From: Eledone cirrhosa
Taxonomy: Eukaryota
Direction: 5' to 3'
DNA length: 64,000 nucleotides
NCBI GenBank assembly: GCA_964016885.1
Contig: CAXHJY010000940.1
Location: 25,264 to 89,263, forward strand
Part shown: positions 6,861-7,048 of the stretch, piece by piece
Position numbering within the stretch: the stretch's first letter is position 1
Layout of the letters: each line of letters begins with the position of its first letter
Notes under the pieces: model-generated
Database searches by the model: none
Told to the model about the DNA's origin: nothing
Seen by the model: only the letters and a program-made list of their open reading frames with translations
Made by a program: the position numbers and the translations under genes

Positions 6861-7048
6861 TGTGAGAAAAAACCCAAATCTTCCATCTCAATTATACTTT
6901 TGAAAAGCAGAAGAACTGCGAAACCGGTAAAGGTACCAAATAAATATATATTTTTATAAAAAAAAACTCCAGTTGCATTTTCGAGTTCATCTTTTTTCCT
7001 TAAACTTTCACTCGTGTAGAACACCTCGTTTTTTTTTTTCATTTTGTA
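6861..7048 (+). mobile_element. Short TA-flanked repeat family D (PLE-tail-like); other copies at 54740-54945 (-) and 56185-56348 (-)
   Basis: Three mutually similar copies, each adjoining TA/CA microsatellite and carrying the HHR-like motif (partly deleted in the third copy). Confidence 0.7.
6895..6935 (+). ncRNA. Minimal hammerhead with U3-A8 variant core (family D)
   Basis: CTT-TTGAAAA-GCAG aagaa CTGC-GAAA-CCGG-TA-AAG, with palindromic ACCGGT and a GUA triplet. Confidence 0.65.

Follow-up and report, generated by a model that had tools for sequence, protein, structure and literature searches.

Results

The stretch of Eledone cirrhosa DNA analysed here (64,000 nucleotides of contig CAXHJY010000940.1, referred to as the window) is AT-rich, with a GC content of 15-42% per 2 kb, and is filled with dense microsatellites, interspersed repeats and retroelement debris. 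A complete minimal type-I hammerhead motif was found at 6897-6932 (+), by reading the sequence and in a strict pattern scan; the preliminary description had quoted its text exactly. Stem I has 3 bp, formed by the 5' arm CUU (6897-6899) and the 3' arm AAG (6930-6932). The core UUGAAAA (U3 U4 G5 A6 A7 A8 A9) occupies 6900-6906 and carries U3-A8 in place of C3-G8, U6900 and A6905 forming a Watson-Crick pair. A6906 directly adjoins G6907, without an extra base between positions 9 and 10.1. Folding gave a stem II of 4 bp, GCAG/CUGC (6907-6919, arms 6907-6910 and 6916-6919), with a 5-nt loop and with G6907-C6919 as its first pair, G10.1-C11.1. The sequence continues with GAAA (G12 A13 A14 A15.1, 6920-6923) and the palindrome ACCGGU (6923-6928; CCGG at 6924-6927, U at 6928), which would form helix III in a dimer. 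H17 is A6929, and the cut is predicted 3' of the GUA triplet. All bases required of a type-I hammerhead (U4 G5 A6 N7 A9, G12 A13 A14, A15.1-U16.1 and H17) are present between 6900 and 6929.

Closing helix III within a monomer was calculated to cost 5.4 kcal/mol (from -3.0 to +2.4 kcal/mol), while the ACCGGU self-duplex has a folding energy of -8.3 kcal/mol. Based on these two values, the motif appears to be built to work as a dimer, with a cut predicted after A6929. An unstable helix III with a palindrome that permits dimerization is a trait of the minimal hammerheads (min-HHRs), and it was observed here. For this copy, the double hammerhead was estimated at -15.5 kcal/mol, compared to 2 x -8.1 kcal/mol for two monomers in their minimum-energy folds and -22.7 kcal/mol for a dimer of non-hammerhead shape. 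The active dimer thus brings no gain in stability over two monomers and is less stable than the non-hammerhead dimer, so that cleavage is likely to be slow or assisted by protein. The monomer fold was ordinary when compared with shuffled sequences (15/200).

The number of motifs expected in the window was estimated from 300 block-wise dinucleotide shuffles of its 64 kb. In the strict scan, U3-A8 motifs with a palindromic helix III were found twice, against 0.03 expected, and none of the 300 shuffles reached that count. When any short loop was allowed, three U3-A8 loci (null 0.63; 7/300 shuffles) and seven C3-G8 loci (null 0.18; 0/300) were obtained. The preliminary description had named mismatched cores at equal frequency as evidence against its reading. 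The strict scan of the window returned neither U3-G8 nor C3-A8 motifs, and a relaxed scan returned one and two, respectively, close to the shuffles, compared to five for U3-A8 and six for C3-G8. The relaxed nulls were 0.8, 0.19, 0.3 and 0.4 for U3-A8, C3-G8, U3-G8 and C3-A8, reached by 0, 0, 22 and 6 of 100 shuffles. Three of the five relaxed U3-A8 matches (964, 5405 and 36374) were put down to chance by eye. Of the two C3-A8 matches, one lies in an inverted terminal motif (62308+/62459-) and the other in a locally duplicated segment (9098/9177).

The resemblance could in principle be a chance product of AT-rich DNA. TTGANAA occurs more often in the window than any of the other three core words when both strands are counted (68, compared to 27 for CTGANGA, 28 for TTGANGA and 37 for CTGANAA), the heptamer alone being uninformative. 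The Rfam covariance models detected no hammerhead in the window at the gathering score. At E up to 10 the matches were driven by microsatellites, with no hammerhead among the 150 of 503 matches listed, and local scans of this motif and of those at 28027 and 5996 gave none either. Bare patterns also arise in sequence collections: a generic pattern matched 59 times in viral contigs (four passing the stem filter) and 57 times in metagenomes (three passing, with no tblastn match to Penelope proteins and no blastn match to the window). Both sets were taken as chance, and a pattern specific to the present motif had no match in the metagenomes. Rfam cannot judge these motifs, however, since the one at 5996, a control with a canonical core, was missed as well. 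Furthermore, no shuffle reached the observed count, and many other hammerhead motifs of the window lie in the same kind of repeat. Chance is therefore extremely unlikely; for this motif it is already largely refuted by the shuffles and by the read pile-up described below.

The motif belongs to a repeat family, here called D, with three copies in the window. Copy 1 (6862-7069, +; about 210 bp, delimited by self-BLAST and alignment) lies between TA/TG microsatellites. Copies 2 (54740-54945, -) and 3 (56196-56346, -) were found by self-BLAST and are 91% and 82% identical to it. The three copies have a common start, some 38 bases 5' of the core. The preliminary description had placed the motif also at 54875 (-). 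The core is indeed whole in copy 2 (54907-54901, -), but the stem II arm GGAC stands opposite CTGC and two of the four pairs are broken. In copy 3 the core is deleted, the 3' half of the motif is kept and the end lies about 30 nt earlier. An intact motif was thus found in one of the three copies, and neither copy 2 nor copy 3 retains the stems in full. Directly upstream of copy 1, across a TA repeat, a piece of the tail of the repeat at 9935-10048 was observed at 6781-6846.

The state of the family was determined by aligning four of six listed public runs to 6862-7069, at a likeness of at least 80%, and scoring changes with a share of at least 4%; reads more than 20% different and rarer variants escape this procedure. 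Two of the runs, X1 and X2, are contig sets of one sample, and two, X4 and X5, are RAD read sets. The numbers of aligned records were 3,551 (X1), 3,684 (X2), 2,525 (X4) and 2,917 (X5). These records are 80-99% alike to copy 1 and, together with the three dispersed copies of the window, describe a large dispersed family, in which the motif mostly occurs singly. The summed contig depth at the motif was about one million, which is not a copy number. A loose-end consensus of X5 at 6882 (132 reads, perhaps from one locus) showed, just before the common start of the copies, a pyrimidine-then-AG word, a possible 3' splice site.

The 23 changes that reached 4% in X1 and X2 could all be placed, at 22 places, and none fell in the core, stem I or the palindrome. 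With the whole core, including the pair positions, free of such changes, U3-A8 is the state of family D and not the decay of one copy. In the RAD runs, all four A>G places of X4 and all five T>C places of X5 were listed, and none of them is A8 or U3, respectively. A C3-G8 class of 4% or more is excluded in both runs, because a change of A8 to G (X4) or of U3 to C (X5) is excluded. A further 18 rows of changes lie outside those listed for the RAD runs; they include all the G>A changes, at three (X4) and two (X5) places, which could touch the core.

Stems I (3 bp) and II (4 bp) are paired in the majority letters. A family consensus lacking either pairing had been named beforehand as contrary evidence, and the claim that the variant core is not random decay is supported by these data. 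Variation was found at 6910, in the loop-closing pair of the short stem II, where G accounts for about 87% of the X1/X2 depth and for about 53-64% of the RAD reads, the other letters making up about 13% and 36-47%. A change of C to T at 6919, which retains a G-U pair, reached 4% in the contigs and 19-23% in the RAD reads, and one at 6925 within the palindrome about 2% and 9-10%. The letters of copy 1 at 6894 and 6934 are private, with 98% and more than 99% of the X1 depth differing. As far as can be told from unphased columns, the majority letters at these two places would let stem I run on past a 2-base bulge.

Many of the aligned records end in (TA)n at 7001-7002, and the window copies end at about 7040 and 7069. 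Self-BLAST showed all three window copies to be dispersed monomers, and no head-to-tail joints were among those listed for any of the four runs, the coverage of which leaves out 7030-7069. This bears on the reading of the family as a non-LTR retrozyme arranged in tandem, or as an element of SINE type, which makes circular RNA monomers by means of its hammerhead. The unit of about 210 bp, its low GC, the lack of an ORF and its great abundance agree with such an element. Known retrozymes are repeats of 150-450 bp with type-I hammerheads (PMC7229834), and a derivation from pLTRs has been proposed (bioRxiv 10.64898/2026.07.22.740005). Given the dispersed copies and the lack of listed tandem joints, this reading is nevertheless quite improbable.

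A single further U3-A8 motif with an irregular stem II, the ACCGGU palindrome and a GUA site was found at 31177-31218 (-), with the core TTGATAA at 31216-31210; the relaxed scan misses it. The preliminary description had treated 31174-31222 (-) as a family of its own. The text is as quoted, but the motif has no self-BLAST partner in the window and is a single copy, its stem I of only 2 bp is marginal, and its status as a family is unsupported. The minimum-energy fold is not hammerhead-shaped. This motif is probably a decayed copy, and chance or heavy decay is more plausible for it than for D. About 75 bases upstream a short frame (31290-31335, -) reaches its stop; by eye it is like the C-terminal end of a Penelope endonuclease.

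This motif and that of D share 12 exact letters, CGAAACCGGTAA, across the 3' half, and they have the same ACCGGU palindrome and GUA site. Their flanks, with copy 1 representing D, showed no alignment above shuffles (122 and 94 of 500; 113/1000; 566/2000). The families had been called sequence-unrelated beforehand, which fits the flanks but not the 12 letters. A separate origin of the two is not established, as both carry CGAAACCGGTAA, and by their sequence they may form one lineage.

Another family with U3-A8 was found at 28017-28120 (+), with the core TTGACAA at 28027 and the top score of the relaxed scan (44). Its inverted twin (27668-27773, -; core at 27761) is the 98% identical arm of the same inverted insertion, as revealed by self-BLAST. 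This is presumably the "family A" of the preliminary description. It is a full type-I motif with a long branched stem II, a 5-bp intramolecular helix III and a GUC site. The loop of helix III is nearly palindromic, so that the hammerhead could fold as monomer or dimer. Copies of this type with only the 3' half lie at inverted junctions (10520-10576, 13736-13781 and 28449-28562).

Downstream of the core, homology was found between the 28027/27761 family and a C3-G8 motif at 9935-10048 (+; core at 9995), which itself lies at an inverted junction. In a position-anchored test none of 2000 shuffles reached the observed alignment, and among 28 pairs only this one and D-D gave 0/2000; the pair had been noticed by eye before it was tested. 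A weaker local test of the tails, with 105 pairs, gave 2, 9, 15 and 30 of 1000 for the comparisons between the two families, values which are not significant after correction. No alignment above shuffles was found between 28027 and D or 31216 (1037-1877 of 2000). The sequence comparison suggests at least one switch of the 3-8 pair, in one direction or the other, inside the 28027/9995 lineage, separate from D. Repeated evolution of the variant core, one of the two origins offered in the preliminary description, gains some support from this homology.

The same comparisons bear on a single ancient origin of U3-A8, from which all three families would have received it. D and the 31216 motif may indeed go back to one ancestor, having CGAAACCGGTAA and the GUA site in common. 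Moreover, non-coding flanks diverge fast, and a failure to align them says little. A reversion in the 9995 lineage could also account for a C3-G8 relative of the 28027 family. The 28027 family, however, differs in architecture, with its long helix III and GUC site, and it aligns with a C3-G8 motif (0/2000) and not with D or 31216. One origin for all three is therefore unlikely.

Open reading frames of Penelope type are present elsewhere in the window. The frame at 21413-22804, from reverse transcriptase (RT) to endonuclease, had 257 homologs (tblastn E 4e-110). It lies in a 5'-truncated, frameshifted ORF with a cysteine-rich linker (21261-23100, +), in which a Pfam scan detected no family; behind it lies a hammerhead core, itself decayed, at 23039. 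We take this ORF to be Neptune-like. A GIY-YIG frame was found at 41772-42203 (Pfam E 0.0005, under the curated cut-off). The region 41630-42520 looks like a typical Penelope insertion, with an inverted pLTR, the 3' end of the GIY-YIG frame, a 3' UTR and, at 42425, a C3-G8 hammerhead that is deleted in part. More copies of this pLTR type lie at 10650-10842, 54352-54712 and 55453-55894, and no longer homologs of the frame 41901-42200 were found. A third endonuclease end, detected by tblastn against Penelope homologs (49762-50006), is decayed and precedes, within 49762-50235 (+), a C3-G8 motif at 50198; the palindrome of this motif is CAAUUG, and a related copy lies at 37948. The three Penelope ORF ends are each followed, no more than about 250 bp away and in the same orientation, by a G8-type core, either whole or decayed (23039, 42425 and 50198). 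Beside the three U3-A8 motifs of the window, no RT or endonuclease frame was found.

Other motifs with canonical cores were observed in repeats at 5993-6027 (+), 11105-11171 (-), 24130-24195 (-), 20845-20980 (+), 34500-34620 (+) and 58175-58215 (+), two of these six having stem II inserts of more than 100 bases. By eye, about eight G8-type groups were distinguished against three of U3-A8 type, a count made without a null. They are 5996; 9995; 11163/24186; 20845/34500; 23039 (decayed); 50198/37948; 58182; and one family with members at 10834, 41823, 54461, 55614 and 55736. With a dozen or so groups in 64 kb, the density of hammerheads is high.

Several other repeats were observed in the window. 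A SINE-like family of about 190-220 bases has some 17 copies by self-BLAST (3744-3857, 7437-7652, 12166-12377, 30280-30467, 32005-32323, 32554-32756, 35926-36098, 57476-57676, 59808-59999 and others). An inverted pair of a short terminal motif, presumably Tc1/mariner-like, lies at 62298-62472 (62308 +, 62459 -) and mimics a C3-A8 core in relaxed scans. LINE RT fragments at 53038-53814 and 35160-35602, which we assume to be RTE-like, are 97-100% identical and gave weak Pfam matches to RVT_1 and DUF6451; the fragment at 53190 had E 1.8e-05, under the curated cut-off. At 38740-39365, units of 24 bases are repeated in tandem with about 95% identity, and self-BLAST showed multiples of 72.

Discussion

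Family D is best explained as a piece, probably 3'-terminal, of a Penelope-like pLTR, or a non-autonomous derivative, which multiplied to a very high copy number, mostly as short stubs in TA microsatellites and carries a minimal type-I hammerhead with a pair-preserving swap; we give this reading a probability of about 0.8. The Penelope link is indirect, as no RT or endonuclease frame adjoins any of the U3-A8 motifs in the window. It draws on the Penelope ORFs with G8-type cores in the same window and on the (TA)n tail end-points, which are as in published elements.

A mechanism can be proposed on this basis. It starts from a motif with all core bases, stems I and II and a 6-base palindrome replacing a stable helix III, in which U3-A8 is shared across the family rather than being a defect of one copy. 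The active fold is known to pair position 3 with position 8 in Watson-Crick fashion, and a U-A pair is established to retain activity. A lone motif would be unable to close helix III; two of them, carried either by both pLTRs of a single precursor RNA or by separate RNAs, could pair through ACCGGU into a double hammerhead and be cut after A6929. The ribozyme activity of D is itself deduced from this anatomy, and cleavage would probably be slow or occur only with the element's protein. The replacement of C-G by U-A would be compensatory, requiring only two transitions toward A/T, and may have occurred repeatedly in the element families of this genome. U-A would be kept for preserving the pair and not for being better. 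The copy at 6900 is most likely an inert stub.

U3-A8 is not a genome-wide switch, since C3-G8 motifs outnumber it in the window (7 vs 3 loci). The idea of a lineage-wide variant core, also raised beforehand, is not supported by these counts. As the motifs of the window carry either C3-G8 or U3-A8, all the data are explained by selection for pairing between positions 3 and 8, without U-A being preferred. Variable places numbered 0 in the 13 core positions compared to 22 in the 168 covered (P = 0.15), and 2 in the 36 positions of the whole motif (P = 0.10). The conservation seen in the pile-up gives no significant support for selection on the U-A core itself. A uniform core is no proof of selection, because repeat copies inherit it from their master element.

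Positive selection of U3-A8 was also considered, for instance as a tuned, slower or protein-dependent ribozyme which suits high-copy amplification. The occurrence of three U3-A8 motifs that differ in N7 within 64 kb, the great abundance of family D and the lack of mismatched cores in the strict scan could be read in its favour. However, C3-G8 is the commoner pair in the same window, the missing mismatched cores are predicted equally well by selection on pairing alone, and the core conservation is not significant. It is thus very unlikely; the claim that the variant core itself was selected is not supported, and selection on pairing suffices.

The D motif could instead be a relic: a master with a weak or dead hammerhead was amplified, its copies are uniform by recent descent, and cleavage is irrelevant to their spread. 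The short stems, the variable 6910 and the energetically unfavoured active dimer fit this explanation. Hammerhead mutants left the insertion of an Anolis Penelope element in vitro unreduced (PMC11167929), and whole clades spread without canonical hammerheads (PMC8557442). Nevertheless, both members of the 3-8 pair changed jointly, and the majority letters of the family retain the other core bases, G10.1-C11.1 and the palindrome, which points to selection before the master. A relic concerns present function and is compatible with past selection in the lineage leading to the master. We regard it as rather unlikely. The preferred reading remains a Penelope-derived repeat whose hammerhead kept its 3-8 pair through the swap.

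More tentatively, several Penelope lineages of this genome may each have exchanged C-G and U-A at the 3-8 pair on their own, at least once in 28027/9995 and once in D/31216, with D, which has no bulged base and a 6-bp dimer palindrome, among the most abundant hammerhead families; this is possible, but we would not yet count on it. If true, the genome would be a natural series for the compensatory evolution of a catalytic tertiary base pair, with U-G and C-A intermediates included. It would then also allow one to ask if amplification is promoted by a U3-A8 dimer ribozyme that is tuned and depends on protein. Having related families with opposite core pairs in one window makes the number of origins and the path of the swap easy to examine, given the assembly.

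The variant itself is already published, and the novelty implied in the preliminary description does not stand: U3-A8 min-HHRs, including both core spellings, are found in PMC4209133. Natural covariation from C3-G8 to U3-A8 in several examples, stated to be active in vitro, and the rule of a 3-8 Watson-Crick pair for hammerheads were reported by Perreault et al. (2011, PMC3088659). Those covariants are like D in their core, but in the part of that paper available they are not described as minimal motifs borne by Penelope elements. The present findings reveal no new chemistry, architecture or system. They show that searches limited to CUGANGA, as well as the Rfam models, miss whole abundant families. 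Three motif strings of D are absent from the supplement of PMC8557442, the accessible part of PMC13282606 makes no mention of hammerheads or ribozymes, and literature searches on octopus hammerheads and on U3-A8/C3-G8 wording, reaching few subscription papers, found no description of these families.

Among other published systems, non-LTR retrozymes (PMC7229834) have a short low-GC unit and a type-I hammerhead as D does, but they are tandem with canonical motifs and D is dispersed. The hammerhead of the Anolis Poseidon element PAc cleaves only with protein, needs the 3-8 pair and is dispensable for insertion in vitro (PMC11167929). It resembles D in being a Penelope hammerhead with insertions of fixed tail end-points, and differs in its C3-G8 core and in having been assayed, D being a prediction. 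Tail variation and TA targeting have been described for Penelope-like elements (PMC8557442, PMC11167929), and the (TA)n ends of D at several fixed points are similar. Small Penelope hammerhead variants with a short palindromic stem III and dimer cleavage (Lunse, Weinberg and Breaker, as cited in the review PMC6765202) share that stem III with D.

The closest relatives are the min-HHRs of Cervera and De la Pena (2014, PMC4209133), who describe a U3-A8 variant in Cercyon Penelope-like elements of Schistosoma mansoni with about 1,300 matches. In their Fig. S3, the cores UUGAUAA and UUGAAAA are each represented once, alongside a C3-G8 counterpart from S. japonicum and a U3-G8 representative from Saccoglossus. 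Min-HHRs sit in the pLTR of elements with an RT and GIY-YIG ORF, and the Schistosoma dimers had low activity in vitro; the slow or protein-assisted cleavage expected of D agrees with this and with the Anolis case. D is like the Cercyon motif in being of type I without a stable helix III, in its palindromic helix III region, G10.1-C11.1 and U3-A8, and also in its U-rich 5' and AU-rich 3' flanks and dispersed single copies. It differs in lacking the extra base between positions 9 and 10.1, in its 4-bp stem II and 6-base palindrome and in its host. This extra base is present in most min-HHRs and absent in two listed representatives, and its lack in D is treated here as a variant trait and not a defining one. 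The palindrome is nearer to the variants with a small palindromic helix III that this paper describes from flies, mosquitoes and rotifers. By its anatomy, D would be a Penelope-type min-HHR in a new host, which extends the published U3-A8 variant to another animal genome.
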